From: Escherichia coli
GTDB taxonomy: Bacteria > Pseudomonadota > Gammaproteobacteria > Enterobacterales > Enterobacteriaceae
DNA: 64,000 nt
Assembly (NCBI RefSeq): GCF_024700885.2
Contig: NZ_CP117016.1
Direction: 5' to 3' (one strand)
Shown: one piece after another, positions 1 to 30,646 of the stretch
Position numbering within the stretch: the stretch's first letter is position 1
Layout: every line of letters begins with the position of its first letter
Position numbers and translations under genes: made by a program
The notes under the pieces: model-generated
The model's input: the letters and a program-made list of their open reading frames with translations, nothing else
Database searches by the model: none
Told to the model about the DNA's origin: nothing

Positions 1-3000
1 AGCTGGATCTCGCCGCCAACAACGGTACGCAACATACGGTATTTTCCGGGCCGGAAGCCCGTCTCGCGGTATTTTGCGCCACGCTCTCGCAGCATGACAT
101 TAACTATCGTCGCCTGAGCGTAACCGGTGCGGCGCACTCCGCTTTACTGGAGCCGATACTCGATCGGTTCCTGGACACCTGCGCGGGACTGCACGCGGAG
201 CCGGGGCAAATACCGATTATTTCCACGCTCACCGCCGACGTCATTGATGAGTCAACGCTCAACCAGGCGGATTACTGGCGCCGACACATGCGCCAGCCGG
301 TGCGTTTTATCCAGAGTATTCAGGTGGCGCATCAGCTCGGCGCCCGCGTTTTTCTGGAGATGGGGCCCGATGCCCAGTTGGTTGCTTGCGGGCAGCGCGA
401 ATACCGCGATAACGCATACTGGATAGCCAGCGCCCGGCGTAACAAAGAGGCGAGCGATGTCCTCAATCAGGCCCTGCTCCAGCTTTACGCTGCCGGCGTC
501 GCCCTACCGTGGGCCGACCTGCTGGCGGGCGATGGACAACGTATCGCTGCGCCATGTTATCCGTTTGATACTGAACGTTACTGGAAAGAGCGCGTCTCCC
601 CGGCCTGCGAGCCTGCCGACGCAGCGCTGTCTGCCGGGCTGGAGGTGGCGAGTCGCGCCGCGACAGCGCTCGATCTCCCTCGCCTGGAAGCGCTTAAACA
701 GTGCGCCACGCGACTGCACGCCATCTACGTCGATCAACTGGTACAACGCTGTACCGGCGATGCCATTGAGAACGGCGTGGACGCCATGACCATCATGCGC
801 CGTGGACGTCTGCTGCCCCGCTACCAGCAGCTACTCCAGCGCCTGCTGAATAACTGCGTGGTCGACGGCGATTACCGCTGCACCGACGGGCGATACGTCC
901 GCGCCCGCCCCATTGAACATCAACAGCGGGAATCACTGCTGACGGAACTTGCCGGTTATTGTGAAGGTTTTCAGGCTATTCCCGACACCATCGCCCGTGC
1001 CGGCGATCGGTTATATGAAATGATGAGCGGCGCGGAAGAACCGGTGGCGATTATCTTCCCGCAAAGCGCCTCCGACGGCGTGGAAGTGCTGTATCAGGAA
1101 TTCAGCTTTGGCCGCTATTTCAACCAAATCGCCGCCGGGGTATTACGCGGCATTGTCCAGACGCGTCAGCCCCGCCAGCCGTTGCGTATTCTTGAAGTTG
1201 GCGGCGGAACCGGCGGCACCACCGCGTGGCTGCTGCCGGAACTCAACGGCGTTCCGGCACTGGAGTACCATTTCACCGATATCTCGGCGCTGTTCACCCG
1301 TCGCGCCCAGCAGAAATTCGCCGACTACGATTTTGTGAAGTATAGCGAGCTGGATCTCGAAAAAGAGGCGCAGTCTCAGGGTTTCCAGGCACAGTCTTAC
1401 GATCTTATCGTGGCAGCGAACGTGATTCACGCCACCCGCCATATTGGCCGCACGCTCGATAATCTGCGCCCCCTGCTCAAGCCGGGCGGGCGCCTGCTGA
1501 TGCGCGAAATCACCCAGCCAATGCGTCTGTTTGACTTCGTTTTCGGCCCGCTGGTTCTTCCGCTACAGGATCTCGACGCCCGCGAAGGTGAGTTATTCCT
1601 CACCACCGCTCAGTGGCAACAACAGTGCCGCCACGCCGGATTCAGCAAAGTGGCGTGGCTACCGCAGGATGGCAGCCCGAACGCCGGGATGAGCGAACAT
1701 ATCATTCTCGCCACGCTGCCCGGTCAGGCGGTTAGCGCCGTAACATTCACCGCGCCATCAGAACCCGTGTTGGGGCAGGCGCTGACGGATAACGGTGATT
1801 ATCTCGCCGACTGGTCTGATTGCGCAGGTCAGCCCGAACAGTTTAACGCCCGCTGGCAGGAGGCATGGCGTCTGCTTTCACAGCGTCATGGCGACGCTCT
1901 GCCTGTGGAACCGCCCCCCGTCGCCGCCCCGGAGTGGCTGGGGAAGGTTCGCTTAAGCTGGCAAAACGAAGCCTTTTCCCGCGGTCAGATGCGCGTTGAA
2001 GCCCGTCATCCTGCTGGCGAGTGGCTGCCGCTATCGCCCGCCGCGCCTCTTCCTGCGCCGCAAACGCATTATCAATGGCGCTGGACGCCCCTCAACGTCG
2101 CCAGCATTGACCATCCGCTTACCTTTAGCTTCAGCGCCGGTACGCTTGCGCGCAGCGACGAGCTGGCGCAATACGACATCATTCACGATCCGCACGCCTC
2201 TTCACGACTGATGATTGTTGAGGAGAGCGAGGATACGCTGGCCTTAGCGGAGAAAGTGATAGCAGCGCTCACCGCCAGCGCAGCCGGATTGATTGTGGTT
2301 ACTCGCCGCGCGTGGCGAGTCGAGGAAAATGAAGCACTCTCTGCATCCCATCACGCGCTATGGGCCTTGCTTCGCGTCGCGGCCAACGAACAGCCGGAAC
2401 GGTTGCTTGCCGCCATCGATCTCGCCGAAAACACCCCGTGGGAAACGCTGCATCAAGGGTTGAGCGCAGTCTCACTATCACAGCGCTGGCTCGCCGCACG
2501 GGGTGACACCCTTTGGCTTCCTTCACTGTCGCCCAATACGGGATGCGCCGCTGAATTACCGGCAAACGTGTTTACCGGCGATAGCCGCTGGCATCTGGTG
2601 ACCGGAGCGTTTGGCGGATTAGGCCGCCTTGCCGTGAACTGGCTCAGAGAAAAAGGGGCGCGACGCATCGCCCTGCTGGCGCCGCGCGTGGATGAGTCAT
2701 GGCTACGCGACGTGGAGGGCGGGCAGACGCGCGTCTGCCGTTGTGATGTGGGCGATGCCGGGCAACTGGCCACGGTTCTTGACGATCTGGCGGCCAACGG
2801 CGGCATTGCCGGAGCGATTCATGCCGCTGGCGTATTGGCTGACGCGCCCTTGCAGGAGCTTGATGACCACCAGCTGGCTGCCGTTTTCGCGGTAAAAGCG
2901 CAGGCGGCAAGCCAGCTGTTGCAAACCCTGCGCAACCACGACGGACGCTATCTTATTCTCTACTCTTCCGCTGCCGCCACCCTCGGCGCGCCGGGTCAGA

Positions 3001-6000
3001 GCGCCCATGCGCTGGCCTGCGGCTACCTGGACGGGCTGGCCCAGCAGTTTTCCACCCTTGATGCGCCGAAAACGCTCTCTGTCGCCTGGGGCGCATGGGG
3101 AGAAAGCGGTCGGGCGGCCACGCCGGAAATGCTGGCGACGCTCGCCAGCCGAGGTATGGGCGCGTTAAGCGATGCCGAAGGCTGCTGGCACCTGGAACAG
3201 GCGGTGATGCGCGGCGCCCCGTGGCGACTGGCGATGCGCGTTTTTACCGACAAAATGCCCCCGTTACAACAGGCTCTGTTTAACATCAGCGCCACAGAAA
3301 AAGCCGCAACGCCGGTCATTCCTCCTGCTGATGACAACGCCTTTAACGGCAGCCTGAGCGATGAAACAGCGGTGATGGCATGGCTGAAAAAGCGGATTGC
3401 GGTTCAGCTAAGGCTGAGCGATCCGGCGTCACTGCATCCAAACCAGGATCTGTTGCAACTCGGCATGGACTCGCTGCTCTTCCTTGAACTCAGTAGCGAT
3501 ATTCAGCACTACCTGGGTGTACGCATCAATGCGGAACGGGCGTGGCAGGATCTGTCTCCTCATGGACTCACGCAGCTTATCTGTTCTAAGCCAGAGGCGA
3601 CGCCTGCCGCTTCGCAGCCGGAAGTGTTGCGGCACGACGCCGACGAGCGTTATGCGCCCTTCCCTTTGACGCCCATTCAGCACGCCTACTGGCTGGGGCG
3701 AACCCACCTCATTGGCTATGGCGGCGTCGCCTGTCACGTCCTGTTTGAGTGGGATAAACGCCACGATGAGTTCGATCTCGCCATACTGGAGAAAGCATGG
3801 AACCAGCTCATCGCACGCCACGATATGTTGCGTATGGTGGTTGATGCCGACGGGCAGCAGCGAATCCTGGCGACAACGCCGGAGTATCACATCCCGCGTG
3901 ACGATCTGCGCGCGCTTTCCCCGGAAGAACAGCGCATCGCGCTGGAAAAACGGCGGCATGAACTGAGCTATCGCGTTTTGCCTGCCGACCAGTGGCCTCT
4001 TTTTGAGCTGGTGGTCAGCGAAATCGACGATTGCCATTACCGTCTGCATATGAACCTCGACCTTTTGCAGTTTGATGTGCAGAGTTTTAAAGTCATGATG
4101 GACGACCTGGCGCAGGTCTGGCGCGGTGAAACGCTGGCACCGCTCGCTATTACCTTCCGTGATTATGTGATGGCTGAACAGGCGCGCCGACAGACATCGG
4201 CATGGCACGATGCCTGGGATTACTGGCAGGAAAAACTGCCGCAACTGCCCTTAGCGCCAGAGCTGCCGGTGGTTGAGACGCCCCCGGAAACGCCACACTT
4301 CACCACCTTCAAATCGACGATCGGCAAGACAGAATGGCAGGCCGTGAAACAGCGCTGGCAGCAGCAAGGCGTCACACCGTCTGCCGCGCTGCTCACGCTG
4401 TTTGCCGCCACCCTTGAGCGCTGGAGCCGTACCACAACATTTACGCTGAACCTGACGTTCTTCAATCGCCAGCCGATCCATCCGCAAATCAACCAGTTGA
4501 TTGGTGATTTTACCTCCGTCACGCTGGTTGATTTTAACTTCTCAGCGCCGGTGACGTTGCAAGAGCAGATGCAACAGACCCAACAGCGCCTCTGGCAAAA
4601 CATGGCGCACAGTGAAATGAACGGTGTTGAGGTGATCCGTGAGCTGGGCCGCCTGCGCGGATCACAACGTCAACCGCTGATGCCGGTAGTGTTTACCAGT
4701 ATGCTGGGGATGACGCTGGAAGGCATGACTATCGATCAGGCGATGAGCCATCTGTTCGGCGAACCCTGCTATGTATTCACGCAAACGCCGCAGGTCTGGC
4801 TGGATCATCAGGTCATGGAGAGTGACGGCGAGTTGATGTTTAGCTGGTACTGCATGGACAACGTGCTGGAACCCGGCGCTGCCGAGGCGATGTTTAATGA
4901 CTATTGCGCCATCCTGCAAGCCGTCATCGCCGCCCCTGAAAGCCTGAAGACTCTCGCCAGCGGCATCGCCAGGCACATTCCCCGCCGACGCTGGCCGCTG
5001 AACGCGCAGGCGGACTACGACCTGCGGGATATTGAGCAGGCGACGCTCGAATACCCCGGCATCCGGCAGGCCAGAGCGGAAATAACCGAACAGGGCGCGT
5101 TGACGCTGGATATCGTGATGGCCGACGATCCTTCGCCATCAGCGGCGATGCCTGATGAGCACGAACTTACCCAACTGGCGCTGCCGTTGCCTGAGCAGGC
5201 GCAGCTTGATGAGCTGGAGGCGACCTGGCGCTGGCTGGAGGCGCGTGCGCTACAGGGGATCGCGGCTACGCTAAATCGTCACGGCCTGTTTACCACGCCG
5301 GAGATCGCCCATCGCTTTAGCGCAATAGTACAGGCGCTGTCCTCGCAAGCGTCTCACCAGCGTCTGCTGCGCCAGTGGCTACAGTGTCTGACGGAAAGAG
5401 AGTGGTTAATCCGCGAAGGTGAAAGCTGGCGCTGCCGCATTCCGCTCAGCGAGATTCCTGAGCCTCAGGAAGCGTGCCCGCAAAGCCAATGGAGCCAGGC
5501 GCTGGCGCAGTATCTGGAAACCTGCATCGCCCGGCACGACGCCCTCTTCTCCGGGCAGTGTTCTCCGCTGGAATTGCTGTTCAACGAGCAGCATCGCGTT
5601 ACCGACGCGCTGTATCGCGACAACCCCGCCAGCACCTGTCTGAATCGCTATACCGCGCAGATTGCCGCCTTGTGCAGCGCAGAACGGATTCTGGAGGTTG
5701 GCGCCGGAACCGCAGCCACTACCGCGCCGGTGCTGAAGGCCACGCGGAACACGCGACAGTCGTACCACTTCACGGACGTCTCCGCGCAGTTCCTCAATGA
5801 CGCCAGAGCCCGTTTCCATGATGAATCGCAGGTGTCTTATGCCTTGTTCGACATCAACCAGCCGCTGGATTTCACCGCCCACCCGGAGGCGGGTTACGAC
5901 CTGATCGTTGCCGTCAATGTGCTCCACGACGCCAGCCATGTCGTCCAGACGTTGCGCAGATTAAAACTGTTGCTGAAAGCCGGCGGACGTTTGCTGATCG

Positions 6001-7406
6001 TTGAAGCGACGGAGCGAAACAGCGTATTCCAGCTGGCGAGCGTGGGCTTTATTGAGGGATTAAGCGGATACCGCGATTTCCGCCGCCGGGATGAGAAACC
6101 GATGCTCACCCGCTCCGCATGGCAGGAGGTTCTCGTTCAGGCCGGGTTTGCAAACGAGCTGGCGTGGCCCGCGCAGGAATCGTCGCCGCTGCGCCAGCAT
6201 CTGCTGGTAGCGCGTTCGCCTGGCGTAAATCGCCCGGATAAAAAAGCCGTGAGCCGCTATTTACAGCAGCGCTTTGGCACCGGTCTGCCCATTTTACAGA
6301 TCCGGCAAAGAGAAGCGTTATTTACGCCGCTGCATGCCCCGTCTGATGCGCCGACTGAGCCAGCCAAACCCACGCCAGTTGCCGGGGGGAATCCGGCACT
6401 GGAAAAACAGGTGGCTGAACTCTGGCAATCGCTGCTGTCTCGCCCCGTGGCAAGGCATCACGACTTTTTCGAACTGGGCGGCGACAGCCTGATGGCGACA
6501 AGGATGGTCGCGCAGCTAAACCGGAGAGGGATTGCCAGGGCTAACCTTCAGGATCTGTTCAGCCATTCGACGCTGAGCGACTTCTGCGCCCATCTACAGG
6601 CGGCTACGTCAGGAGAGGACAACCCGATACCCCTTTGCCAGGGCGACGGTGAGGAAACCCTGTTTGTCTTCCACGCTTCAGACGGCGATATCAGCGCCTG
6701 GCTGCCGCTCGCTAGCGCGTTGAACAGGCGCGTTTTCGGCCTGCAAGCAAAATCGCCGCAGCGCCTTGCCACGCTCGACCAGATGATCGATGAGTATGTC
6801 GGGTGCATCCGTCGTCAGCAGCCTCACGGCCCTTATGTGCTGGCGGGTTGGTCGTATGGCGCGTTTCTTGCGGCGGGCGCCGCACAACGCCTGTACGCCA
6901 AAGGCGAGCAGGTTCGGATGGTGTTAATCGATCCCGTGTGCCGACAGGATTTCTGTTGCGAAAACCGGGCGGCCCTGCTGCGCCTGTTAGCCGAAGGACA
7001 AACGCCTCTGGCACTGCCCGAACATTTCGACCAGCAGACGCCCGACAGCCAGCTTGCCGACTTTATTAGCCTCGCTAAAACGGCCGGTATGGTGTCGCAA
7101 AACCTGACGCTGCAAGCGGCAGAAACGTGGCTCGACAACATCGCGCATCTGCTGCGTTTACTGACTGAGCATACGCCGGGCGAAAGCGTTCCGGTCCCCT
7201 GTCTCATGGTGTATGCCGCCGGGAGACCCGCGCACTGGACGCCAGCAGAAACCGAGTGGCAGGGCTGGATAAACAACGCCGACGACGCTGTGATTGAAGC
7301 CAGCCACTGGCAAATCATGATGGAAGCCCCCCACGTTCAGGCTTGTGCGCAACACATTACGCGCTGGCTTTGCGCAACCTCAACGCAACCGGAGAACACG
7401 TTATGA
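1..7406 (+). CDS. irp1: Yersiniabactin PKS/NRPS HMWP1, 5'-truncated at window edge (reading frame opens at nt 3; ORF-track Met at 288 is internal)
   Basis: Frame 3 is open from nt 3 to the stop at 7404-7406. Translation shows an acyltransferase motif (GAAHSALLEP), two SAM-methyltransferase motifs (LEVGGGTGG near 1195; LEVGAGTAA near 5695), a KR Rossmann motif (VTGAFGGLGR near 2600), carrier-protein serines (LGMDSLL near 3465; GGDSLMA near 6485), a cyclization-type D-rich motif near 4060 and a thioesterase GWSYG near 6850. Gene order matches the HPI. Confidence 0.9.
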   Translation, partial: LDLAANNGTQHTVFSGPEARLAVFCATLSQHDINYRRLSVTGAAHSALLEPILDRFLDTCAGLHAEPGQIPIISTLTADVIDESTLNQADYWRRHMRQPVRFIQSIQVAHQLGARVFLEMGPDAQLVACGQREYRDNAYWIASARRNKEASDVLNQALLQLYAAGVALPWADLLAGDGQRIAAPCYPFDTERYWKERVSPACEPADAALSAGLEVASRAATALDLPRLEALKQCATRLHAIYVDQLVQRCTGDAIENGVDAMTIMRRGRLLPRYQQLLQRLLNNCVVDGDYRCTDGRYVRARPIEHQQRESLLTELAGYCEGFQAIPDTIARAGDRLYEMMSGAEEPVAIIFPQSASDGVEVLYQEFSFGRYFNQIAAGVLRGIVQTRQPRQPLRILEVGGGTGGTTAWLLPELNGVPALEYHFTDISALFTRRAQQKFADYDFVKYSELDLEKEAQSQGFQAQSYDLIVAANVIHATRHIGRTLDNLRPLLKPGGRLLMREITQPMRLFDFVFGPLVLPLQDLDAREGELFLTTAQWQQQCRHAGFSKVAWLPQDGSPNAGMSEHIILATLPGQAVSAVTFTAPSEPVLGQALTDNGDYLADWSDCAGQPEQFNARWQEAWRLLSQRHGDALPVEPPPVAAPEWLGKVRLSWQNEAFSRGQMRVEARHPAGEWLPLSPAAPLPAPQTHYQWRWTPLNVASIDHPLTFSFSAGTLARSDELAQYDIIHDPHASSRLMIVEESEDTLALAEKVIAALTASAAGLIVVTRRAWRVEENEALSASHHALWALLRVAANEQPERLLAAIDLAENTPWETLHQGLSAVSLSQRWLAARGDTLWLPSLSPNTGCAAELPANVFTGDSRWHLVTGAFGGLGRLAVNWLREKGARRIALLAPRVDESWLRDVEGGQTRVCRCDVGDAGQLATVLDDLAANGGIAGAIHAAGVLADAPLQELDDHQLAAVFAVKAQAASQLLQTLRNHDGRYLILYSSAAATLGAPGQSAHALACGYLDGLAQQFSTLDAPKTLSVAWGAWGESGRAATPEMLATLASRGMGALSDAEGCWHLEQAVMRGAPWRLAMRVFTDKMPPLQQALFNISATEKAATPVIPPADDNAFNGSLSDETAVMAWLKKRIAVQLRLSDPASLHPNQDLLQLGMDSLLFLELSSDIQHYLGVRINAERAWQDLSPHGLTQLICSKPEATPAASQPEVLRHDADERYAPFPLTPIQHAYWLGRTHLIGYGGVACHVLFEWDKRHDEFDLAILEKAWNQLIARHDMLRMVVDADGQQRILATTPEYHIPRDDLRALSPEEQRIALEKRRHELSYRVLPADQWPLFELVVSEIDDCHYRLHMNLDLLQFDVQSFKVMMDDLAQVWRGETLAPLAITFRDYVMAEQARRQTSAWHDAWDYWQEKLPQLPLAPELPVVETPPETPHFTTFKSTIGKTEWQAVKQRWQQQGVTPSAALLTLFAATLERWSRTTTFTLNLTFFNRQPIHPQINQLIGDFTSVTLVDFNFSAPVTLQEQMQQTQQRLWQNMAHSEMNGVEVIRELGRLRGSQRQPLMPVVFTSMLGMTLEGMTIDQAMSHLFGEPCYVFTQTPQVWLDHQVMESDGELMFSWYCMDNVLEPGAAEAMFNDYCAILQAVIAAPESLKTLASGIARHIPRRRWPLNAQADYDLRDIEQATLEYPGIRQARAEITEQGALTLDIVMADDPSPSAAMPDEHELTQLALPLPEQAQLDELEATWRWLEARALQGIAATLNRHGLFTTPEIAHRFSAIVQALSSQASHQRLLRQWLQCLTEREWLIREGESWRCRIPLSEIPEPQEACPQSQWSQALAQYLETCIARHDALFSGQCSPLELLFNEQHRVTDALYRDNPASTCLNRYTAQIAALCSAERILEVGAGTAATTAPVLKATRNTRQSYHFTDVSAQFLNDARARFHDESQVSYALFDINQPLDFTAHPEAGYDLIVAVNVLHDASHVVQTLRRLKLLLKAGGRLLIVEATERNSVFQLASVGFIEGLSGYRDFRRRDEKPMLTRSAWQEVLVQAGFANELAWPAQESSPLRQHLLVARSPGVNRPDKKAVSRYLQQRFGTGLPILQIRQREALFTPLHAPSDAPTEPAKPTPVAGGNPALEKQVAELWQSLLSRPVARHHDFFELGGDSLMATRMVAQLNRRGIARANLQDLFSHSTLSDFCAHLQAATSGEDNPIPLCQGDGEETLFVFHASDGDISAWLPLASALNRRVFGLQAKSPQRLATLDQMIDEYVGCIRRQQPHGPYVLAGWSYGAFLAAGAAQRLYAKGEQVRMVLIDPVCRQDFCCENRAALLRLLAEGQTPLALPEHFDQQTPDSQLADFISLAKTAGMVSQNLTLQAAETWLDNIAHLLRLLTEHTPGESVPVPCLMVYAAGRPAHWTPAETEWQGWINNADDAVIEASHWQIMMEAPHVQACAQHITRWLCATSTQPENTL

Positions 7407-8503
7407 TGCCGTCCGCCTCCCCAAAACAACGCGTACTGATTGTGGGCGCCAAATTTGGCGAAATGTACCTGAATGCCTTTATGCAGCCCCCGGAGGGGCT
7501 GGAACTGGTCGGCCTGCTGGCGCAGGGAAGCGCCCGTTCAAGAGAGCTGGCTCATGCGTTTGGCATTCCGCTGTATACCTCGCCGGAACAGATAACCAGG
7601 ATGCCGGATATCGCCTGTATTGTCGTGCGTTCGACCGTCGCCGGAGGAACCGGTACGCAGCTTGCCAGACACTTTCTGACGCGCGGCGTACACGTCATTC
7701 AGGAGCATCCCCTCCACCCGGATGACATCAGTTCCTTACAAACGCTGGCGCAGGAACAGGGCTGCTGCTATTGGGTAAACACGTTTTATCCGCATACGCG
7801 CGCGGGACGCACATGGCTTCGCGATGCGCAGCAGCTGCGTCGCTGTCTGGCTAAGACGCCGCAGGTGGTCCACGCCACCACCAGCCGACAGTTGCTCTAC
7901 TCCACTCTGGATTTGTTGTTGCTGGCTCTGGGCGTTGATGCCGTCGCCGTGGAGTGCGACGTGGTTGGCAGCTTTAGCGATTTTCACTGTCTGAGACTCT
8001 TCTGGCCGGAGGGAGAAGCCTGCCTGCTGCTTCAGCGCTATCTCGATCCTGACGATCCAGATATGCATAGCCTTATCATGCACCGCCTGCTGCTGGGCTG
8101 GCCGGAAGGTCATCTTTCGCTGGAGGCGAGCTACGGCCCCGTCATCTGGTCATCCAGCCTGTTTGTCGCAGACCATCAGGAGAACGCCCACAGCCTCTAC
8201 CGCAGACCGGAGATCCTGCGCGATCTGCCGGGTCTGACGCGCAGCGCGGCGCCCCTGAGCTGGCGCGACTGCTGCGAAACCGTCGGGCCGGAGGGCGTCA
8301 GCTGGTTGCTACACCAGTTGCGCAGCCATCTGGCGGGCGAACATCCACCAGCGGCCTGCCAAAGCGTACATCAGATCGCGTTATCACGTTTATGGCAGCA
8401 GATTTTACGTAAGACCGGCAATGCGGAGATCAGACGCCTGACGCCGCCGCACCACGACCGGTTAGCCGGTTTCTACAACGATGATGATAAGGAGGCGCTG
8501 TGA
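7403..8503 (+). CDS. ybtU: Thiazolinyl imide reductase (yersiniabactin biosynthesis)
   Basis: 366-aa product starting MMPSASPKQRVLIVGAKFG; the ATG overlaps the irp1 stop (ATGA) and its own stop overlaps the ybtT GTG start. Position between irp1 and ybtT is conserved. Confidence 0.85.
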   Translation: MMPSASPKQRVLIVGAKFGEMYLNAFMQPPEGLELVGLLAQGSARSRELAHAFGIPLYTSPEQITRMPDIACIVVRSTVAGGTGTQLARHFLTRGVHVIQEHPLHPDDISSLQTLAQEQGCCYWVNTFYPHTRAGRTWLRDAQQLRRCLAKTPQVVHATTSRQLLYSTLDLLLLALGVDAVAVECDVVGSFSDFHCLRLFWPEGEACLLLQRYLDPDDPDMHSLIMHRLLLGWPEGHLSLEASYGPVIWSSSLFVADHQENAHSLYRRPEILRDLPGLTRSAAPLSWRDCCETVGPEGVSWLLHQLRSHLAGEHPPAACQSVHQIALSRLWQQILRKTGNAEIRRLTPPHHDRLAGFYNDDDKEAL

Positions 8504-9303
8504 CGCAATCTGCAATGTGCATACCGCTGTGGCCCGCCCGGAACGGCAATACTGCGCATCTGGTCATGTGCCCTTTCGCTGGCGGCAGCAGTAGCGCGTT
8601 TCGCCACTGGCAAGCTGAGCAACTGGCTGATTGCGCGCTTTCTCTGGTGACCTGGCCGGGGCGCGATCGCCTTCGCCATCTGGAACCGCTCAGAAGCATT
8701 ACACAACTGGCGGCACTGCTGGCGAACGAGCTGGAAGCATCCGTATCGCCTGACACGCCGCTTTTACTCGCCGGGCACAGCATGGGGGCGCAGGTGGCGT
8801 TTGAAACCTGCCGACTTCTGGAGCAACGGGGGCTTGCGCCACAAGGACTGATTATTTCCGGGTGCCATGCCCCGCATCTGCATTCTGAACGCCAGCTCAG
8901 CCATCGCGATGATGCCGACTTTATCGCTGAGCTGATAGACATTGGCGGATGTTCTCCTGAACTGCGGGAAAACCAGGAATTAATGTCGCTGTTTCTTCCT
9001 CTTCTGCGCGCTGATTTTTACGCCACCGAGAGCTATCACTACGACTCGCCCGACGTCTGTCCGCCGCTGCGCACGCCTGCGCTGTTATTGTGCGGCAGCC
9101 ACGATCGCGAAGCCTCCTGGCAGCAGGTCGATGCCTGGCGTCAGTGGCTGAGCCACGTTACAGGCCCGGTGGTGATTGACGGCGATCATTTCTATCCCAT
9201 TCAACAAGCCCGGTCCTTTTTTACGCAGATTGTCCGCCATTTTCCCCACGCATTTTCTGCAATGACCGCGTTGCAAAAACAGCCCAGTACTTCAGAAAGG
9301 TGA
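8500..9303 (+). CDS. ybtT: Type II thioesterase (yersiniabactin editing)
   Basis: 267 aa with an alpha/beta-hydrolase GHSMG motif; GTG start overlaps the ybtU stop. Confidence 0.85.
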   Translation: MTQSAMCIPLWPARNGNTAHLVMCPFAGGSSSAFRHWQAEQLADCALSLVTWPGRDRLRHLEPLRSITQLAALLANELEASVSPDTPLLLAGHSMGAQVAFETCRLLEQRGLAPQGLIISGCHAPHLHSERQLSHRDDADFIAELIDIGGCSPELRENQELMSLFLPLLRADFYATESYHYDSPDVCPPLRTPALLLCGSHDREASWQQVDAWRQWLSHVTGPVVIDGDHFYPIQQARSFFTQIVRHFPHAFSAMTALQKQPSTSER

Positions 9304-9306
9304 CGC

Positions 9307-10884
9307 ATGAATTCTTCCTTTGAATCTCTGATTGAACAGTATCCCTTACCCATTGCCGAACAGTTGCACCACTGGGCGGCCCGTTATGCCTCGCGAATTG
9401 CCGTCGTTGATGCAAAGGGGTCGTTAACCTACAGCGCGCTTGATGCACAAGTTGACGAACTTGCCGCAGGTCTGTCATCACTGGGTTTGCGTTCGGGGGA
9501 GCATGTAATTGTGCAGCTTCCCAACGACAATGCGTTTGTTACCCTGCTGTTCGCCTTGTTAAGACTGGGCGTTATCCCCGTGCTGGCGATGCCCTCGCAA
9601 CGGGCGCTGGATATCGACGCGCTGATTGAGCTGGCGCAACCCGTCGCTTACGTTATTCACGGGGAAAACCACGCAGAGCTGGCCCGACAGATGGCGCACA
9701 AACACGCCTGCTTGCGTCATGTTCTGGTCGCTGGAGAGACCGTGAGCGACGATTTTACGCCGCTCTTCTCCCTTCACGGTGAGCGACAGGCATGGCCGCA
9801 GCCTGATGTTTCCGCCACCGCGTTGTTGTTGCTCTCAGGCGGCACAACCGGCACGCCCAAACTCATCCCGCGCCGACATGCCGACTATAGCTATAACTTC
9901 AGCGCTTCTGCTGAACTGTGCGGCATCAGCCAACAGAGCGTGTATCTCGCCGTCCTCCCGGTGGCGCATAACTTTCCGCTGGCCTGCCCCGGTATTCTGG
10001 GAACGCTTGCCTGCGGCGGAAAAGTGGTGCTGACCGACAGCGCCAGCTGTGATGAGGTGATGCCTTTAATCGCGCAGGAAAGAGTGACTCACGTCGCCCT
10101 GGTTCCGGCGCTGGCGCAATTATGGGTGCAGGCCAGGGAGTGGGAAGACAGCGACCTTTCGTCGCTGCGCGTCATTCAGGCAGGCGGCGCCCGGCTCGAC
10201 CCGACGCTTGCTGAGCAGGTTATCGCCACCTTTGACTGTACCCTGCAACAGGTTTTCGGTATGGCGGAAGGCCTGCTCTGTTTTACCCGGCTGGACGATC
10301 CGCATGCCACCATTCTCCACAGCCAGGGGCGCCCGTTGTCCCCTCTGGATGAAATCCGCATCGTTGATCAAGACGAGAACGACGTCGCGCCGGGCGAAAC
10401 CGGGCAATTGTTAACGCGCGGCCCTTATACCATTTCGGGCTATTACCGCGCCCCTGCCCACAACGCGCAGGCCTTTACCGCGCAAGGGTTTTACCGCACA
10501 GGCGACAATGTCAGGCTGGATGAGGTGGGGAACCTGCACGTTGAGGGACGCATAAAAGAGCAGATCAACCGCGCCGGAGAAAAAATAGCCGCGGCTGAAG
10601 TGGAATCGGCACTGCTGCGTTTAGCGGAAGTGCAAGATTGCGCGGTGGTCGCCGCGCCGGACACGCTGCTTGGCGAGCGGATTTGCGCGTTTATCATCGC
10701 GCAGCAGGTGCCAACTGACTATCAGCAGTTGCGTCAACAACTGACCCGTATGGGGCTCAGCGCGTGGAAAATTCCTGACCAAATCGAGTTTCTGGACCAC
10801 TGGCCGCTCACCGCCGTCGGCAAGATAGACAAAAAACGCCTGACGGCTCTCGCCGTCGACCGTTATCGCCATTCTGCCCAATAA
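9307..10884 (+). CDS. ybtE: Salicyl-AMP ligase (adenylation enzyme)
   Basis: 525 aa with adenylate-forming enzyme motifs (SGGTTGTPK, GYYRAP, GDN, EGRIKEQINRAGEK). Confidence 0.9.
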   Translation: MNSSFESLIEQYPLPIAEQLHHWAARYASRIAVVDAKGSLTYSALDAQVDELAAGLSSLGLRSGEHVIVQLPNDNAFVTLLFALLRLGVIPVLAMPSQRALDIDALIELAQPVAYVIHGENHAELARQMAHKHACLRHVLVAGETVSDDFTPLFSLHGERQAWPQPDVSATALLLLSGGTTGTPKLIPRRHADYSYNFSASAELCGISQQSVYLAVLPVAHNFPLACPGILGTLACGGKVVLTDSASCDEVMPLIAQERVTHVALVPALAQLWVQAREWEDSDLSSLRVIQAGGARLDPTLAEQVIATFDCTLQQVFGMAEGLLCFTRLDDPHATILHSQGRPLSPLDEIRIVDQDENDVAPGETGQLLTRGPYTISGYYRAPAHNAQAFTAQGFYRTGDNVRLDEVGNLHVEGRIKEQINRAGEKIAAAEVESALLRLAEVQDCAVVAAPDTLLGERICAFIIAQQVPTDYQQLRQQLTRMGLSAWKIPDQIEFLDHWPLTAVGKIDKKRLTALAVDRYRHSAQ

Positions 10885-10893
10885 GCGCAAACC

Positions 10894-10960
10894 GACCCGA
10901 AACAGGTTGAAATAAACCCGTTTCGGGTAGCACTACTATTAGAAATAGTTATCATTTTCA
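10894..10960 (+). promoter_or_regulatory. fyuA upstream control region: inverted repeat (cccgaaac/gtttcggg, 10896-10927) and an AT-rich Fur-box-like sequence (agaaatagttatcattttc, 10941-10959)
   Basis: Read directly in the 130-bp ybtE–fyuA intergenic region; fyuA/psn is known to be Fur- and YbtA-regulated. Confidence 0.35.
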
Positions 10961-11014
10961 ATTCACCATTGTCGGTATTTTTGGCGTTTCGCCGTCTTAC
11001 AGGGACTCACAACA

Positions 11015-13036
11015 ATGAAAATGACACGGCTTTATCCTCTGGCCTTGGGGGGATTATTGCTCCCCGCCATTGCTAATGCCCAGACTTCACAGCAAGACGA
11101 AAGCACGCTGGTGGTTACCGCCAGTAAACAATCTTCCCGCTCGGCATCAGCCAACAACGTCTCGTCTACTGTTGTCAGCGCGCCGGAATTAAGCGACGCC
11201 GGCGTCACCGCCAGCGACAAACTCCCCAGAGTCTTGCCCGGGCTCAATATTGAAAATAGCGGCAACATGCTTTTTTCGACGATCTCGCTACGCGGCGTCT
11301 CTTCAGCGCAGGACTTCTATAACCCCGCCGTCACCCTGTATGTCGATGGCGTCCCTCAGCTTTCCACCAACACCATCCAGGCGCTTACCGATGTGCAAAG
11401 CGTGGAGTTGCTGCGAGGCCCACAGGGAACGTTATATGGCAAAAGCGCTCAGGGCGGGATCATCAACATCGTCACCCAGCAGCCGGACAGCACGCCGCGC
11501 GGCTATATTGAAGGCGGCGTCAGTAGCCGCGACAGTTATCGAAGTAAGTTCAACCTGAGCGGCCCCATTCAGGATGGCCTGCTGTACGGCAGCGTCACCC
11601 TGTTACGCCAGGTTGATGACGGCGACATGATTAACCCCGCGACGGGAAGCGATGACTTAGGCGGCACCCGCGCCAGCATAGGGAATGTGAAACTGCGTCT
11701 GGCGCCGGACGATCAGCCCTGGGAAATGGGCTTTGCCGCCTCACGCGAATGTACCCGCGCCACCCAGGACGCCTATGTGGGATGGAATGATATTAAGGGC
11801 CGTAAGCTGTCGATCAGCGATGGTTCACCAGACCCGTACATGCGGCGCTGCACTGACAGCCAGACCCTGAGTGGGAAATACACCACCGATGACTGGGTTT
11901 TCAACCTGATCAGCGCCTGGCAGCAGCAGCATTATTCGCGCACCTTCCCTTCCGGTTCGTTAATCGTCAATATGCCTCAGCGCTGGAATCAGGATGTGCA
12001 GGAGCTGCGCGCCGCAACCCTGGGCGATGCGCGTACCGTTGATATGGTGTTTGGGCTGTACCGGCAGAACACCCGCGAGAAGTTAAATTCAGCCTACGAC
12101 ATGCCGACAATGCCTTATTTAAGCAGTACCGGCTATACCACCGCTGAAACGCTGGCCGCATACAGTGACCTGACCTGGCATTTAACCGATCGTTTTGATA
12201 TCGGCGGCGGCGTGCGCTTCTCGCATGATAAATCCAGTACACAATATCACGGCAGCATGCTCGGCAACCCGTTTGGCGACCAGGGTAAGAGCAATGACGA
12301 TCAGGTGCTCGGGCAGCTATCCGCAGGCTATATGCTGACCGATGACTGGAGAGTGTATACCCGTGTAGCCCAGGGATATAAACCTTCCGGGTACAACATC
12401 GTGCCTACTGCGGGTCTTGATGCCAAACCGTTCGTCGCCGAGAAATCCATCAACTATGAACTTGGCACCCGCTACGAAACCGCTGACGTCACGCTGCAAG
12501 CCGCGACGTTTTATACCCACACCAAAGACATGCAGCTTTACTCTGGCCCGGTCGGGATGCAGACATTAAGCAATGCGGGTAAAGCCGACGCCACCGGCGT
12601 TGAGCTTGAAGCGAAGTGGCGGTTTGCGCCAGGCTGGTCATGGGATATCAATGGCAACGTGATCCGTTCCGAATTCACCAATGACAGTGAGTTGTATCAC
12701 GGTAACCGGGTGCCGTTCGTACCACGTTATGGCGCGGGAAGCAGCGTGAACGGCGTGATTGATACGCGCTATGGCGCACTGATGCCCCGACTGGCGGTTA
12801 ATCTGGTCGGGCCGCATTATTTCGATGGCGACAACCAGTTGCGGCAAGGCACCTATGCCACCCTGGACAGCAGCCTGGGCTGGCAGGCGACTGAACGGAT
12901 GAACATTTCCGTCTATGTCGATAACCTGTTCGACCGTCGTTACCGTACCTATGGCTACATGAACGGCAGCAGCGCCGTCGCGCAGGTCAATATGGGTCGC
13001 ACCGTCGGTATCAATACGCGAATTGATTTCTTCTGA
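11015..13036 (+). CDS. fyuA: TonB-dependent outer-membrane receptor for ferric yersiniabactin / pesticin
   Basis: 673 aa with signal peptide, TonB-box region, and a C-terminal aromatic residue ending the beta-barrel (…RIDFF). Confidence 0.9.
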   Translation: MKMTRLYPLALGGLLLPAIANAQTSQQDESTLVVTASKQSSRSASANNVSSTVVSAPELSDAGVTASDKLPRVLPGLNIENSGNMLFSTISLRGVSSAQDFYNPAVTLYVDGVPQLSTNTIQALTDVQSVELLRGPQGTLYGKSAQGGIINIVTQQPDSTPRGYIEGGVSSRDSYRSKFNLSGPIQDGLLYGSVTLLRQVDDGDMINPATGSDDLGGTRASIGNVKLRLAPDDQPWEMGFAASRECTRATQDAYVGWNDIKGRKLSISDGSPDPYMRRCTDSQTLSGKYTTDDWVFNLISAWQQQHYSRTFPSGSLIVNMPQRWNQDVQELRAATLGDARTVDMVFGLYRQNTREKLNSAYDMPTMPYLSSTGYTTAETLAAYSDLTWHLTDRFDIGGGVRFSHDKSSTQYHGSMLGNPFGDQGKSNDDQVLGQLSAGYMLTDDWRVYTRVAQGYKPSGYNIVPTAGLDAKPFVAEKSINYELGTRYETADVTLQAATFYTHTKDMQLYSGPVGMQTLSNAGKADATGVELEAKWRFAPGWSWDINGNVIRSEFTNDSELYHGNRVPFVPRYGAGSSVNGVIDTRYGALMPRLAVNLVGPHYFDGDNQLRQGTYATLDSSLGWQATERMNISVYVDNLFDRRYRTYGYMNGSSAVAQVNMGRTVGINTRIDFF

Positions 13037-13551: not shown

Positions 13552-13606
13552 GGTGATGCTGCCAACTTACTGATTTAGTGTATGATGGTGTTTTTGAGGT
13601 GCTCCA

Positions 13607-13882
13607 GTGGCTTCTGTTTCTATCAGCTGTCCCTCCTGTTCAGCTACTGACGGGGTGGTGCGTAACGGCAAAAGCACCGCCGGACATCAGCGCTATCTCT
13701 GCTCTCACTGCCGTAAAACATGGCAACTGCAGTTCACTTACACCGCTTCTCAACCCGGTACGCACCAGAAAATCATTGATATGGCCATGAATGGCGTTGG
13801 ATGCCGGGCAACTGCCCGCATTATGGGCGTTGGCCTCAACACGATTTTACGTCACTTAAAAAACTCAGGCCGCAGTCGGTAA
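13607..13882 (+). CDS. insA: IS1 InsA
   Basis: 91 aa starting [24 protein letters not shown] (zinc finger plus HTH). Confidence 0.9.
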
Positions 13883-14304
13883 CCTCGCGCATACAGCCGG
13901 GCAGTGACGTCATCGTCTGCGCGGAAATGGACGAACAGTGGGGCTATGTCGGGGCTAAATCGCGCCAGCGCTGGCTGTTTTACGCGTATGACAGGCTCCG
14001 GAAGACGGTTGTTGCGCACGTATTCGGTGAACGCACTATGGCGACGCTGGGGCGTCTTATGAGCCTGCTGTCACCCTTTGACGTGGTGATATGGATGACG
14101 GATGGCTGGCCGCTGTATGAATCCCGCCTGAAGGGAAAGCTGCACGTAATCAGCAAGCGATATACGCAGCGAATTGAGCGGCATAACCTGAATCTGAGGC
14201 AGCACCTGGCACGGCTGGGACGGAAGTCGCTGTCGTTCTCAAAATCGGTGGAGCTGCATGACAAAGTCATCGGGCATTATCTGAACATAAAACACTATCA
14301 ATAA
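13801..14304 (+). CDS. insB: IS1 InsB (expressed as an InsAB' fusion by -1 frameshift)
   Basis: 167-aa ORF overlapping the insA 3' end in the -1 frame. Confidence 0.85.
13856..13864 (+). promoter_or_regulatory. IS1 programmed -1 ribosomal frameshift motif (A6C)
   Basis: ttaaaaaac lies in the insA/insB overlap. Confidence 0.6.
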
Positions 14305-14319
14305 GTTGGAGTCATTACC

Positions 14320-14645
14320 CCGTATTGCAGTGTTATATTCTTCGCTAAATCTTTTATTTCTTTTAATGTTGCGTGATCCTGCATAGTCATTGTGACTAAT
14401 GTTAATTTAGTCTGTTCAAGTTTGAGCGCATTAAAGACTTCTAAATTAATTGTCGACGTAACAATTAATAGATGCTTAATTTTATGCAATTCAAGCGCCC
14501 GAATAACAGGAAAGATGGCCATAGCATCGCCAATCTGATCGGGAATATGTATGACAACAAAGTCTGTTTTTTCAATATTAAAATTATAAGCTTTATAATC
14601 GTAGTAACTAAATGCAATACGTCTCAACAATGATACTAAAAACAT
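14320..14645 (-). pseudogene. yeeL: Glycosyltransferase family 9 (heptosyltransferase-like) gene fragment, 3'-truncated by IS1
   Basis: Minus-strand ORF (MFLVSLLRRIAF…IHIPDQIGDAMAIFPVIRALE…) runs into the IS1 right end; position upstream of shiA matches yeeL in K-12. Symbol recalled from memory, not verified. Confidence 0.5.
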
Positions 14646-18174: not shown

Positions 18175-18891
18175 GTGGGACGTAAATGGGCCAATATTGT
18201 TGCTAAAAAAACGGCTAAAGACGGTGCAACGTCTAAAATTTATGCAAAATTCGGTGTAGAAATCTATGCTGCTGCCAAACAAGGTGAACCCGATCCAGAA
18301 TTAAACACATCTTTAAAATTCGTTATTGAACGTGCAAAGCAGGCACAAGTTCCAAAGCACGTTATTGATAAAGCAATTGATAAAGCCAAAGGCGGTGGAG
18401 ATGAAACGTTCGTACAGGGACGTTATGAAGGCTTTGGTCCTAATGGCTCAATGATTATTGCTGAGACATTGACTTCAAATGTTAACCGTACGATTGCTAA
18501 CGTTCGCACAATTTTCAATAAAAAAGGCGGCAATATCGGAGCGGCAGGTTCTGTCAGCTATATGTTTGACAATACGGGTGTGATTGTATTTAAAGGAACA
18601 GACCCTGACCATATTTTTGAAATTTTGCTTGAAGCTGAAGTTGATGTTCGTGATGTAACTGAAGAAGAAGGTAATATTGTTATTTATACTGAACCTACTG
18701 ACCTTCATAAAGGAATCGCGGCGCTAAAAGCAGCTGGAATCACTGAGTTCTCAACAACAGAATTAGAAATGATTGCTCAATCTGAAGTTGAGCTTTCCCC
18801 AGAAGATTTAGAAATCTTTGAAGGGCTTGTTGATGCCCTTGAAGATGACGACGATGTACAAAAAGTTTATCATAACGTCGCAAATCTCTAA
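18175..18891 (+). CDS. yeeN: YebC/PmpR-family transcriptional regulator
   Basis: 238 aa; GAGGAG RBS 9 nt upstream of a GTG start. Confidence 0.85.
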
Positions 18892-18931: not shown

Positions 18932-19345
18932 AATCTCATATAATCCTTATAAAAATATAATGTTTAACTCGTCATATTGCTTATAAAAAATCCCCGTTCC
19001 CAGAGAAATAATATTTATTAAAATGGCAGGTCTTCTTTTTCTGATTACCGAAGACAAAGTGGCAATTACGTATAGTTTCCCGATAAAGACGCGACAGCTA
19101 CATCCCGCATAAGGCATTTTTCTCTTTATCTTTGTACGGTACTTCATGGAACAGAATTTTTGACCTTGTGAATCGTGATGTCTGTTGGGGAGGAGCAATT
19201 TGCTCACTGAAGCGTGAGACTCGATTAAGCGCACGAAACACAGAAATCAAAAAACCCGGCCACTTTTTTACAAACTGACCGGGTAAAAATAATTTTTATT
19301 TTTTAACTGCCTTGAGACTCATAGAGATGTCTCAAAACTAAAATT

Positions 19346-19421
19346 TGGCTCCTCTGACTGGACTCGAACCAGTGACATACGGATTAACAGTCCGCCGTTC
19401 TACCAACTGAACTACAGAGGA
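19346..19421 (-). tRNA. asnW: tRNA-Asn
   Basis: 76-nt reverse complement of the tRNA-Asn sequence ending CCA; differs from the two plus-strand copies at one D-arm position. Confidence 0.9.
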
Positions 19422-19521
19422 ATCGTGAGAACGAGGCGAATATTAGCGATGCCCACCCACAATGTCAAAGCCTGTTTTTTAAATTTGAAATCGTTTGCTG
19501 AAATAATCTGCATTTTGTTGT

Positions 19522-21009
19522 TTATTCCGACACAACTGGCTTTTTTTCACACTTTTGCGGTTCGGGTCGAGGGTATTTCCATAGCCAACGTCCAGTAACC
19601 ATTCGCCAGTAAAACAGCACGGCCCGCACAGCCCAGTCGGCAAACATTCCCATCCAGACACCAACCACACCCCAGCCAAGCATGATGCCCAGCACATAAC
19701 CGACGACAACCCGGCAACCCCACATGCTCAACATAGAAACCCACATAGCGTAACGGGCGTCACGAGCCCCCTTAAATCCAGCGGGTAGCACCCATGAGGC
19801 GGACCAAATAGGCATAAATAAAGCATTTAGCCAAATCAGAATCACAACGACATGTTTAACCTGTGGATCCTGGGTGTAAAACGATGCCATAACCCCGGCA
19901 AAGGGAGCCGTTAGCCAGGCGATGGCCGTTAATCCAAGAGTGGACAGCCAGAAGACATGCCGCAACTGAATCTCTGCTTGCGCTATCTGCCCTACCCCTA
20001 ACCTTCGGCCTGTAATGATCGTAGAAGCAGAGCCGAGCGCACTTCCGGGTAAGTTGATAAGAGCCGCAATTGAAAACGCGATAAAATTTCCGGCAATAAC
20101 ACTGGTCCCCATCCCGGCAACGAACATTTGGGTTAATAACCGACCACTGGTAAATAACACTGATTCGACACTCGCTGGAATACCAATCCCCATGACTTCC
20201 CAGATAATGCTAAAATTCAGCGGTTTAAAATAGCTCTTTAACGAAATCCTTAGCGCAGGATTAAAACCAATCGCCAGCACCCACAAAATTGCAACTGCGC
20301 CAATATAACGAGAAATGGTTAAACCCAACCCAGCCCCGACAAATCCCAGTCCCGGCCAGGAGAAAAGGCCGTAAATCAATATGCCGCTAATAATAATATT
20401 AAGAATATTCAGGCTACCGTTAATCAGTAGCGGTATTTTCGTATTCCCTGCACCACGAAGTGCCCCGCTACCAATCAAAGTGATGGCAGCTGCTGGATAA
20501 CTGAGTACCGTCAGCTCCAGATAAGTCAACGCCAGTGCTTTAACTTCTGTCGTGGCATCACCCGCGACGAAATCAATAATTTGCTCGCCAAAATGATGAA
20601 TAAGCGTTGCCAACAGTACGGCAAACAACGTCATGATCACCAATGACTGCCGCGTCGCCACCCTCGCTCGTCGTCGATCCCGCTTACCGAGACTAAATGC
20701 CACAACGACAGTAGTACCAAGATCGATAGCAGCAAAAAAAGCCATAATGACCATATTGAAGCTGTCCGCCAATCCCACGCCGGCCATCGCATCTTTTCCC
20801 AGCCAGCTGACCAGAAAAGTGCTCAGAACCCCCATCAACAGGACACAGGCATTCTCCATGAAGATAGGAACAGCAAGCGGGGTTATCTCGCGCCAGAACA
20901 ACACTTTGTAGCTCTTGCGTTTAGCGTGCCAGCGAGTGCCGTGAACAACCTGGCGTAAAGCAGAGGAGATATTCAAAGCCGACCTTAATTGCAGAAAGTG
21001 AAACCACAT
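19522..21009 (-). CDS. yeeO: MATE-family efflux transporter
   Basis: 495 aa from the MWFHFLQLRS start; multi-pass membrane protein. The upstream 51-codon extension in the ORF track is discounted. Confidence 0.8.
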   Translation of the reverse strand: MWFHFLQLRSALNISSALRQVVHGTRWHAKRKSYKVLFWREITPLAVPIFMENACVLLMGVLSTFLVSWLGKDAMAGVGLADSFNMVIMAFFAAIDLGTTVVVAFSLGKRDRRRARVATRQSLVIMTLFAVLLATLIHHFGEQIIDFVAGDATTEVKALALTYLELTVLSYPAAAITLIGSGALRGAGNTKIPLLINGSLNILNIIISGILIYGLFSWPGLGFVGAGLGLTISRYIGAVAILWVLAIGFNPALRISLKSYFKPLNFSIIWEVMGIGIPASVESVLFTSGRLLTQMFVAGMGTSVIAGNFIAFSIAALINLPGSALGSASTIITGRRLGVGQIAQAEIQLRHVFWLSTLGLTAIAWLTAPFAGVMASFYTQDPQVKHVVVILIWLNALFMPIWSASWVLPAGFKGARDARYAMWVSMLSMWGCRVVVGYVLGIMLGWGVVGVWMGMFADWAVRAVLFYWRMVTGRWLWKYPRPEPQKCEKKPVVSE

Positions 21010-21169: not shown

Positions 21170-21245
21170 TCCTCTGTAGTTCAGTCGGTAGAACGGCGGA
21201 CTGTTAATCCGTATGTCACTGGTTCGAGTCCAGTCAGAGGAGCCA
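21170..21245 (+). tRNA. asnU: tRNA-Asn
   Basis: TCCTCTGTAGTTCAGTCGGTAGAACGGCGGACTGTTAATCCGTATGTCACTGGTTCGAGTCCAGTCAGAGGAGCCA. Confidence 0.95.
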
Positions 21246-23577: not shown

Positions 23578-23653
23578 TCCTCTGTAGTTCAGTCGGTAGA
23601 ACGGCGGACTGTTAATCCGTATGTCACTGGTTCGAGTCCAGTCAGAGGAGCCA
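23578..23653 (+). tRNA. asnV: tRNA-Asn
   Basis: Identical 76-nt tRNA-Asn sequence. Confidence 0.95.
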
Positions 23654-27082: not shown

Positions 27083-28570
27083 ACCGACTCCTGATTCAAT
27101 TGTATGATGGTATTCATTGAACAGAACAATGGATCCCCCACCATTGCTGACCGCAAAACATTTACACGATCAATACTGCGCGTAATATAATTAAAAATCC
27201 AGCATTCTCAATCCATTACGAAAGAAGATGGCATTGTGGAATAGCCAGACTTCCTCGTGTTAACGTCCGACAAAATGCGTCATTGACAGCGGTTTCTGTG
27301 GATTGACACATTTCATTCAGATAATGAATTAATGCTACTGCCGGACCAACCAGCAAACGGGCATTGTGTTCTGAAATCCAGGCTATTGATTCAACGTCAG
27401 CGACAGATCTGCGCTGTAAAAGAACTTGTAAAACAACGCAATAGAATTATCCGGAATGGTGGCGACTATGCACTAGAACACCACAATTTCGCTCTCTCGG
27501 TAAGGCACTGTCACAGCATTCAACAGAATGTGACTTGCCAGATTTATTAGCGCCACCAGATGTTTAACCGGGTAACCACGACCCAGTCGGGGATATATTC
27601 CATCTTCTCGCTGACATCATCAAGAATAAAAAGGTTTATCACACTCAGAGCAACGTTCTTCAGCAGGCGGGATAATTCTTCAACATTTAAAAGATGTGTT
27701 ATTAAAGGCATACAAACTGGACGTATTGTATTTTCTTTTGGTGGTTGACCTAAGGTAGCAGTTTATCCTGATGCGCTGAGATTTCTGTAATATCTACGTC
27801 AACATTCTCCTCGAATAGAAAATGCAGCCTCGGCAAGTGATTCACATTTTTTAACAAAACGTTGTTAGCGTGCCATTTTCAGAAGCTCTCCAAGAAAGCG
27901 AATTCTTTTCTCAAATTCTGCATTCTCAGACACAGCTTTCTACTCCATGGCAATGGCCCAAATACGAAGTTGCTCAGGATCATTAGTGGTGCTGAGAAGT
28001 TAAATAACCATGCGGAGTACCACTCGTCATCACGTATTTATATATCATGAAGCTATTGTTGTGTTTTGTACATCAGTAGATGTATTCTGATATACTCCTT
28101 TTGCTAGACATAACCTTTCACCTGCTTGCAAAGCTTCTGTGTTCTGACATTGCCAAATTGTTGCAATTCTGTATCCAGCCTTCTTTCAGTCATAGCTTCG
28201 GGCCGCGATAAGACTCACTGATCTGACCCTGATTCCTCTTGCAGACTTTATAGACCAATTAAAATGCAGTTTCTGCAGGTCAACGTCTGACCATCATTGT
28301 CATCACTCTGGCCATTAGAGTAACCTTCTGCATTCATCCTTTTGTAAAAAGTTTATGTCAGTATCAGCAATTAACCGGACCTGATACTGATATGAGTCTT
28401 ACCGCATATACGGTCAATTTCAGCAATTAATTACATTATCCACGCCAAAGTGTTTGTCATCGCAATGATGGTACCTTCTTTCAGACACCATTTTTTCAAC
28501 TCCGTTTTCCACGGACCGCACTCTTATGTCAAGAGTGCGGTGATCCTACCCACGTAATATGGACACAGGC

Positions 28571-29393: not shown

Positions 29394-29689
29394 TTCAGGC
29401 GCTTCGCGAAGTATGTCGCGGCCTTTTGGAGGATAGCCAGCTCTTCATCCCGTTCTGCCAGCTGGCGTTTGAGACGTGCAATCTCGGTAGACATCTCCAG
29501 TTCACGTTCAGAAGACGTCTGCTGATTTTGCTGTTTACTGCGCCAGTTGTAGAGCTGTGATTCATACAGGCTGAGTTCACGGGCTGCGGCAGTAACACCG
29601 ATGCGTTCAGCAAGCTTCAGGGCTTCACTGCGAAATTCAGGCGAATGCTGTTTACGGGGTTTTTTACTGGTTGATACTGTTTTTGTCAT
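29390..29689 (-). CDS. insE: IS3 OrfA transposase subunit
   Basis: 99 aa starting [25 protein letters not shown]. Confidence 0.85.
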
Positions 29690-29775
29690 GTGAGTCACCT
29701 CTGACTGAGAGTTTACTCACTTAGCCGCGTGTCCACTATTGCTGGGTAAGATCACCTTATTGCTGCGCTGATAAT

Positions 29776-30606: not shown

Positions 30607-30613
30607 AACCATT

Positions 30614-30639
30614 ATCCCCCGGCACACTGCGCCGGGGGA
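30614..30639. terminator. Bidirectional hairpin terminator
   Basis: tcccccggc-acactgc-gccggggga between convergent ORFs. Confidence 0.5.
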
Positions 30640-30646
30640 TGTCAAT

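Follow-up and report, generated by a model that had tools for sequence, protein, structure and literature searches.

Based on our analysis, we conclude that asnW of Escherichia coli strain MLI114 is very probably an intact tRNA-Asn(GUU) gene of expressed type, with a genuine, rare and derived C17-to-T transition in its unpaired D-loop. The change is real, derived and recent, and it arose at least twice in E. coli. It belongs to a kind of feature that is already known, namely a rare recurrent SNP in an annotated tRNA gene, and is ordinary strain-level variation; the SNP is probably near-neutral and probably matters little. It makes a small correction to the usual view of the E. coli asn tRNA genes as identical, and typing schemes or read mapping that assume this identity could be affected. 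T17 is also a natural marker by which asnW transcripts can be separated from those of asnT, asnU and asnV in tRNA sequencing.

The variant gene and its locus

The stretch of DNA analysed here, which we call the window, is 64,000 nt long and belongs to MLI114, an E. coli strain from human stool in Mali whose RefSeq version 2 record is NZ_CP117013.1. Over 41.3 kb the window is identical to that record apart from one intergenic homopolymer (40357-40364), which is C8 in the window and C7 in the record; the window probably comes from another assembly version than RefSeq version 2. ARAGORN, run on the whole window, found exactly three tRNA-Asn(GTT) genes, which are given below with the variant nucleotide and the genes on either side of asnW.

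19346..19421, minus strand: asnW, tRNA-Asn(GTT), 76 nt, CCA encoded, the variant copy with U17 (ARAGORN; Rfam RF00005, 72.6 bits; yeeN/yeeO flanks as in K-12)
19405..19405, minus strand: variant nucleotide in the D-loop (tRNA position 17), T for the canonical C (alignment; sole mismatch to EC931 in 11,701 bp)
21170..21245, plus strand: asnU, tRNA-Asn(GTT), canonical C17 (ARAGORN; alignment; Rfam; RefSeq annotation)
23578..23653, plus strand: asnV, tRNA-Asn(GTT), canonical C17 (ARAGORN; alignment; Rfam; RefSeq annotation)
18175..18891, plus strand: yeeN, conserved gene flanking asnW at its 3' end, at a distance of 455 bp (MLI114 RefSeq annotation; K-12 collinearity)
19522..21009, minus strand: yeeO, conserved neighbour on the 5' side of asnW (RefSeq annotation)

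An earlier note on this DNA had described asnW as differing from asnU and asnV at a single D-arm position. Our alignment of the three genes bears this out: 75 of the 76 columns are identical, and column 17 alone differs, with T in the minus-strand copy and C in both plus-strand copies. The window base at 19405 is A on the plus strand, and the sequences quoted in that note, TTCAGTTGGTAGAAC and TTCAGTCGGTAGAAC, match the window exactly. Position 17 is an unpaired nucleotide of the D-loop and not a stem base. The Rfam model puts it in an insert column, so Rfam cmscan gives no score difference between the C17 and T17 alleles. All three copies are full-length matches to RF00005 (model positions 1-71) and score 72.6 bits each, far above the gathering threshold of 29, in agreement with the view that the three asn tRNA genes are intact. 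ARAGORN places the anticodon GTT at positions 34-36 of asnW, and in the alignment the conserved U8, A14, G18, G19, U33, G53-T54-T55-C56 and A58, together with the 3' CCA, are all present and unaltered by the SNP.

The gene order in MLI114 is shiA-amn-yeeN-tRNA(-)-yeeO-tRNA(+)-cbl-nac-tRNA(+)-ldtA-cobT-cobS-cobU, and the RefSeq annotation of K-12 has the same order. In both genomes, the gene that we call asnW lies between yeeN and yeeO on the strand opposite to asnU and asnV. Since the flanking order is that of K-12, the names asnW, asnU and asnV, which had been assigned to these genes before, are correct.

The three loci had further been described as unoccupied members of a family known as a hotspot of island integration, and both parts of this description stand. 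The region is collinear with K-12: the window between 14900 and 26600 spans 11,701 bp against 11,699 bp in K-12, with three small gaps and no insertion. No integrase adjoins asnW, asnU or asnV in the RefSeq annotation of the window, and since yeeN is only 455 bp away from the tRNA, the asnW attachment site is empty. The hotspot character of the family is seen in strain 1190, which has a tyrosine integrase directly at the 3' end of asnW, and in the report that pks is located at asnW/asnU/asnV and the High-Pathogenicity Island (HPI) at asnT (PMC8209727). In MLI114, the fourth copy, asnT, is occupied by the yersiniabactin HPI about 17 kb to the left of the window. There, asnT lies at 2139126-2139201 of the MLI114 record with an adjacent integrase, followed by ybtS...irp2-irp1 (the left stretch spans 2121715-2139201 of the record), and the far end of the island falls in the window.

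1..13036, plus strand: right end of the yersiniabactin High-Pathogenicity Island (irp1 partial, ybtU, ybtT, ybtE, fyuA; RefSeq annotation)

The SNP probably has no connection with the attachment sites being empty, because such islands integrate at the 3' end of the tRNA gene and are not known to replace more than that end, and position 17 is in the 5' half.

Frequency and origins of the T17 allele

The frequency of the allele was surveyed by megablast, with the 76-nt T17 gene as query against 5,426 complete E. coli genomes, in which 21,691 tRNA-Asn places were found. An exact T17 match occurs in 3 of 5,424 genomes, the other 5,421 being free of T17 copies, a frequency of 0.06% that refers to this allele, since the megablast summary gives only the best place per genome and leaves other single-base tRNA-Asn variants uncounted. 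The three are MLI114, B19695 (Ireland) and Z142-3 (China). A comparison with other strains had been proposed in the earlier note as a check, and it thus recovered T17 in three separately deposited assemblies. In all three genomes, the T17 copy is the gene between yeeN and yeeO, that is, asnW; no occurrence is in asnT, asnU or asnV, and in the MLI114 genome the other three asn copies, identical to one another, read C17.

The allele is found on two distinct haplotypes, and each has a close relative with the canonical base. EC931 and the window are identical across 11,701 bp but for base 19405, and PM22 and Z142-3 are identical across 12,076 bp but for tRNA position 17. The window and Z142-3 haplotypes differ from each other at 243 positions over 11.1 kb (2.2%), and those closest to the tRNA gene are 28 bp and 35 bp away from its ends; any tract transferred between them would therefore have to be shorter than 138 bp. 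Since T17 sits on two haplotypes that are 2.2% apart, each with a C17 sister differing only there, we conclude that the allele had at least two origins by point mutation.

Other genera interchange C and U freely at this position; set against that, the rarity in E. coli suggests that purifying selection acts on the four copies or that gene conversion takes place among them. A fully neutral U17 might be expected in more than 3 of 21,691 gene copies, so that some constraint or homogenisation may be at work in E. coli. The low frequency would then reflect the recent origin of the allele, plus purifying selection and/or gene conversion that holds the four copies identical.

How MLI114 and B19695 came to share the allele is best considered together with their genomic backgrounds. 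Sampling of the core genome at two segments, pnp-agaW and modC-cydA, places MLI114 in a group of about 24 genomes with an identity of at least 99%; strain 1190 belongs to this group, and B19695, HSP60 and EC931 are absent from it. Between MLI114 and B19695, the core genome has 406 mismatches in 24.9 kb, and the divergence is 1.3-2%, which rules out that the two are clone-mates sharing T17 by vertical descent. The window from 1 to 52055, which comprises the HPI end, shiA to cobU and the agn43 island, is in contrast nearly identical to HSP60, EC931 and B19695. Within window 1-52 kb, MLI114 and HSP60 agree without exception over 14.3 kb and differ 5 times over 31.7 kb, T17 being one of the five, and MLI114 and B19695 have about 10 orthologous differences across the asn/HPI segment, a count that leaves aside the agn43 recombinant cluster and non-orthologous IS1 copies. 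The clone-mate 1190 is only 97.7% identical to MLI114 in the same 1-52 kb segment. Taking the near-identity with HSP60 and B19695 despite the divergence of the core together with the lower identity of 1190, we reason that the segment was recombined in. The HPI-asn-agn43 segment of MLI114 (at least 52 kb) thus looks like an import by homologous recombination from another lineage, and spread of the HPI by homologous recombination is a known mode. These surroundings are biologically weightier than the SNP but represent a known phenomenon: asnT carries an HPI, and clonal frames that are unrelated have in common a region of at least 52 kb (window 1-52,055). MLI114 and B19695 share no clearly derived site other than T17, and the simplest reading of T17 is one origin on the haplotype followed by transfer with the segment; a third, independent origin of T17 in one of the two strains is a conceivable but less simple alternative.

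Several other features of the window can be compared among the same strains. At 13552-14319 there is an IS1 copy and directly next to it, at 14319-14645, a truncated yeeL-like gene of glycosyltransferase family 9. This IS1 is present in HSP60 too, where the glycosyltransferase gene is intact and the DNA is 861 bp longer, and the arrangement suggests an IS1-adjacent deletion in MLI114 at 13552-14645; B19695 has further IS1 copies in this region and one more inside yeeO. MLI114 has a private SNP at 26970 in cobU (C, against T in HSP60 and B19695), and its cobU protein accession is unique among the genomes examined; a second private SNP is at 37072. Downstream of cobU, the region 27200-34500 holds degraded remnants of IS4, IS3, ISL3 and IS110 along with fragments of phosphotriesterase-related and gamma-glutamyltransferase genes, and this patch is conserved in HSP60 and B19695. 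The agn43 gene (Ag43 autotransporter, 42479-45597) is frameshifted, with one G at 44768 missing relative to HSP60 and B19695, and is a pseudogene in RefSeq; the agn43 of B19695 has about 40 substitutions clustered at 44530-45408, typical of recombination between agn43 alleles.

At the right end, a phage tail module occupies 52055-64000, with annotated baseplate, tape measure, late control D and tail fibre genes. It starts at a truncated cbtA, the toxin gene of a CP4-44-like island, of which a remnant is left at 51863-52054. B19695 has an intact cbtA-yeeW there, and the annotation suggests that a prophage inserted into cbtA. Within the module, a 1.6-kb tail-fibre segment (53211-54818) has opposite orientations in the window and in RefSeq version 2, with 99.9% identity, and is adjoined by a serine-recombinase (invertase-like) gene at 52133-52705. 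The arrangement resembles an invertible host-range switch of the Gin/Cin type, of which both states have been captured.

Likely consequences of U17 and competing explanations

The U17 change is probably neutral or nearly so, because position 17 makes no pair in the cloverleaf and because the anticodon and G73 are untouched. The identity elements for AsnRS are the anticodon and G73, and both are the same in asnW as in the canonical copies of the alignment; G18/G19 and the T-loop are unaltered as well. As for folding, a nearest-neighbour model gives the cloverleaf an energy of -23.3 kcal/mol for C17 and U17 alike. Besides the cloverleaf, the model predicts a competing fold of another shape with a pair between base 17 and G26, at -24.5 kcal/mol with C17 versus -22.5 kcal/mol with U17; it is favoured for C17 only. 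The minimum free energy fold of the U17 allele is the cloverleaf, and the cloverleaf probability in silico rises from 0.04 for C17 to 0.30 for U17, values to which we give little weight as the model leaves out tertiary contacts and modifications. U17 might thus have a small effect on folding.

A second possible consequence concerns modification. The U17 D-loop, AGUUGGUA, is the same as the D-loop of all five tRNA-Lys genes of the MLI114 genome. In E. coli, D17 is made site-specifically by DusB, in whose substrates U17 is always followed by G18 (PMC5814906). The variant asnW likewise has U17 followed by G18. Judged by this sequence criterion, the U17 transcript would be a substrate of DusB and would carry dihydrouridine at position 17 (D17). 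If expression is roughly equal among the four copies, about a quarter of the cellular tRNA-Asn would be this second isodecoder, with the decoding of AAC and AAU unchanged.

The sequences flanking asnW contain candidate signals for its transcription.

19440..19468, minus strand: promoter-like site for asnW, TTGACA, 17-nt spacer, TAATAT (consensus scan, 10/12 matches; a consensus match alone)
19248..19284, minus strand: probable intrinsic terminator of asnW, a GC-rich hairpin (CCCGGUCAG...GGCCGGG) with U6 after it (ViennaRNA fold of the 3' flank)

The promoter-like site, a strong one by its consensus match, lies upstream of asnW and stops 19 nt before the mature 5' terminus. Downstream of asnW, a strict terminator scan made no call, the loop being too long for its rule, and the fold shows a hairpin with a long loop and U6; we therefore grade the terminator only as probable. 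Directly after the 3' end of asnW and ahead of this element, there is a 12-bp hairpin (UUGAGAC...GUCUCAA core) at 19309-19338 on the minus strand, which could be a processing signal.

Other accounts of T17 have to be weighed against a genuine point mutation of little effect. That the T17 of the source assembly goes back to faulty sequencing, assembly or polishing is very improbable. Polishing can go wrong at repeated tRNA genes, and the C8/C7 homopolymer between the window and RefSeq version 2 shows that the assembly had errors; but the genome contains no other T17 copy that could be a source of mis-mapping, and the revised assembly of MLI114 (RefSeq version 2) keeps the T, though it differs elsewhere by the homopolymer and the inversion. 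Moreover, B19695 from Ireland and Z142-3 from China, each deposited separately, have the identical change, and the site is outside homopolymers and outside Dam and Dcm motifs. A systematic error linked to methylation can be set aside, given that no Dam or Dcm motif is at the site and that three identical copies in the same genome read C. We likewise see hardly any chance that T17 itself was imported, either by horizontal transfer from a U17 species (for example Yersinia, the source of the HPI) or as a short patch of between-strain gene conversion. The exact 76-nt T17 tRNA does exist in Yersinia aldovae, Y. pekkanenii and other Enterobacterales, the HPI is nearby, and the whole MLI114 region was clearly gained by recombination. 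The flanks of asnW, however, are identical to those of the E. coli sisters right to the gene edge on both haplotypes, with no foreign DNA attached, and the length limit derived above would apply to any tract in Z142-3. The HPI is at asnT and not at asnW, and islands of this kind are not known to replace a tRNA gene beyond its 3' end, where position 17 does not lie. The pure E. coli flanks and this mode of replacement together lead us to reject, in particular, an import from Yersinia with the HPI. Between-strain transfer with a large segment, for its part, is already contained in the best explanation for MLI114 and B19695.

The recurrence of the C17-to-U change in asnW could, alternatively, be non-neutral and reflect a paralog-specific mutational hotspot or selection for a useful second isodecoder, D17-bearing or with a cleaner fold; we regard this as unlikely. 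It would fit with asnW having changed at this one base on two or more haplotypes that are unrelated to each other. It would also fit with the orientation of asnW, which alone among the asn copies is on the strand of positive GC skew and co-oriented with replication, so that its sense-strand C may be prone to deamination, and with the predicted loss of the competing misfold in U17 (cloverleaf probability in silico, 0.04 to 0.30, as above). There are only 2-3 events, however, and the chance that these would hit the same copy is about 1/4 to 1/16. A frequency of 0.06%, with each occurrence at a tip beside a C17 sister, is the pattern of a recent change that is unselected or mildly deleterious. 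Effects of strand asymmetry are small, and tRNA folding in vivo is dominated by tertiary contacts and modifications that are outside the model. If the recurrence were non-random after all, it would be a minor case of paralog-specific mutation bias or isodecoder evolution. A more elaborate scheme, in which a recurrent asnW C17-to-U change is favoured by bias or selection, yields a D17-bearing isodecoder less prone to misfolding, and travels between clones on the HPI-flanking segment, seems to us decidedly unlikely. We thus favour a genuine, derived and near-neutral transition in an intact asnW gene.

Comparison with known tRNA-Asn genes and asn loci

The closest known counterpart of the variant gene is asnW of K-12, which is identical to its paralogs asnT, asnU and asnV. 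The two share the yeeN-yeeO locus, the length, the strand relation to the other copies, the anticodon GTT, G73, the CCA end and 75 of 76 bases; K-12 asnW has C17, whereas MLI114 asnW has T17. In the literature, the asn tRNA genes are treated as 100% identical (PMC8209727). The asn loci that are occupied by islands of the HPI and pks types belong to the same family of attachment sites, with the integrase at asnT in MLI114 and at asnW in 1190. The asnW, asnU and asnV of the window differ from them in being without an integrase and without extra DNA relative to K-12. Within E. coli, the variant D-loop has a counterpart in tRNA-Lys(UUU) of the lysT cluster, which has the same 8-nt D-loop, A14-G15-U16-U17-G18-G19-U20-A21, and differs from the variant asnW in identity, D-stem and anticodon.

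U17 also occurs in tRNA-Asn outside E. coli. In our species scan, with each bacterial species represented by one genome, the 36-nt T17 core turned up at 98 loci in other species, and its carriers include whole Shewanella tandem arrays, all sampled Rosenbergiella, Buchnera and Wigglesworthia. The full 76-nt T17 tRNA is identical at 15 loci, including those of Yersinia aldovae, Y. pekkanenii, Rosenbergiella, Prodigiosinella and Lonsdalea. In several Shewanella arrays, C17 and T17 copies stand side by side, in proportions such as 1 T to 7 C or 4 T to 1 C, and C/U17 heterogeneity among tRNA-Asn paralogs is common in this genus. The native tRNA-Asn of Y. aldovae, Y. pekkanenii, Rosenbergiella spp., Prodigiosinella confusarubida, Lonsdalea iberica and several insect endosymbionts is identical to the variant asnW at 76 of 76 nt. 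The genomic contexts of these foreign genes are unrelated to that of E. coli asnW, and their U17 is the state of the representative genome, often in multiple copies, whereas in E. coli it is a rare allele in one copy out of four.
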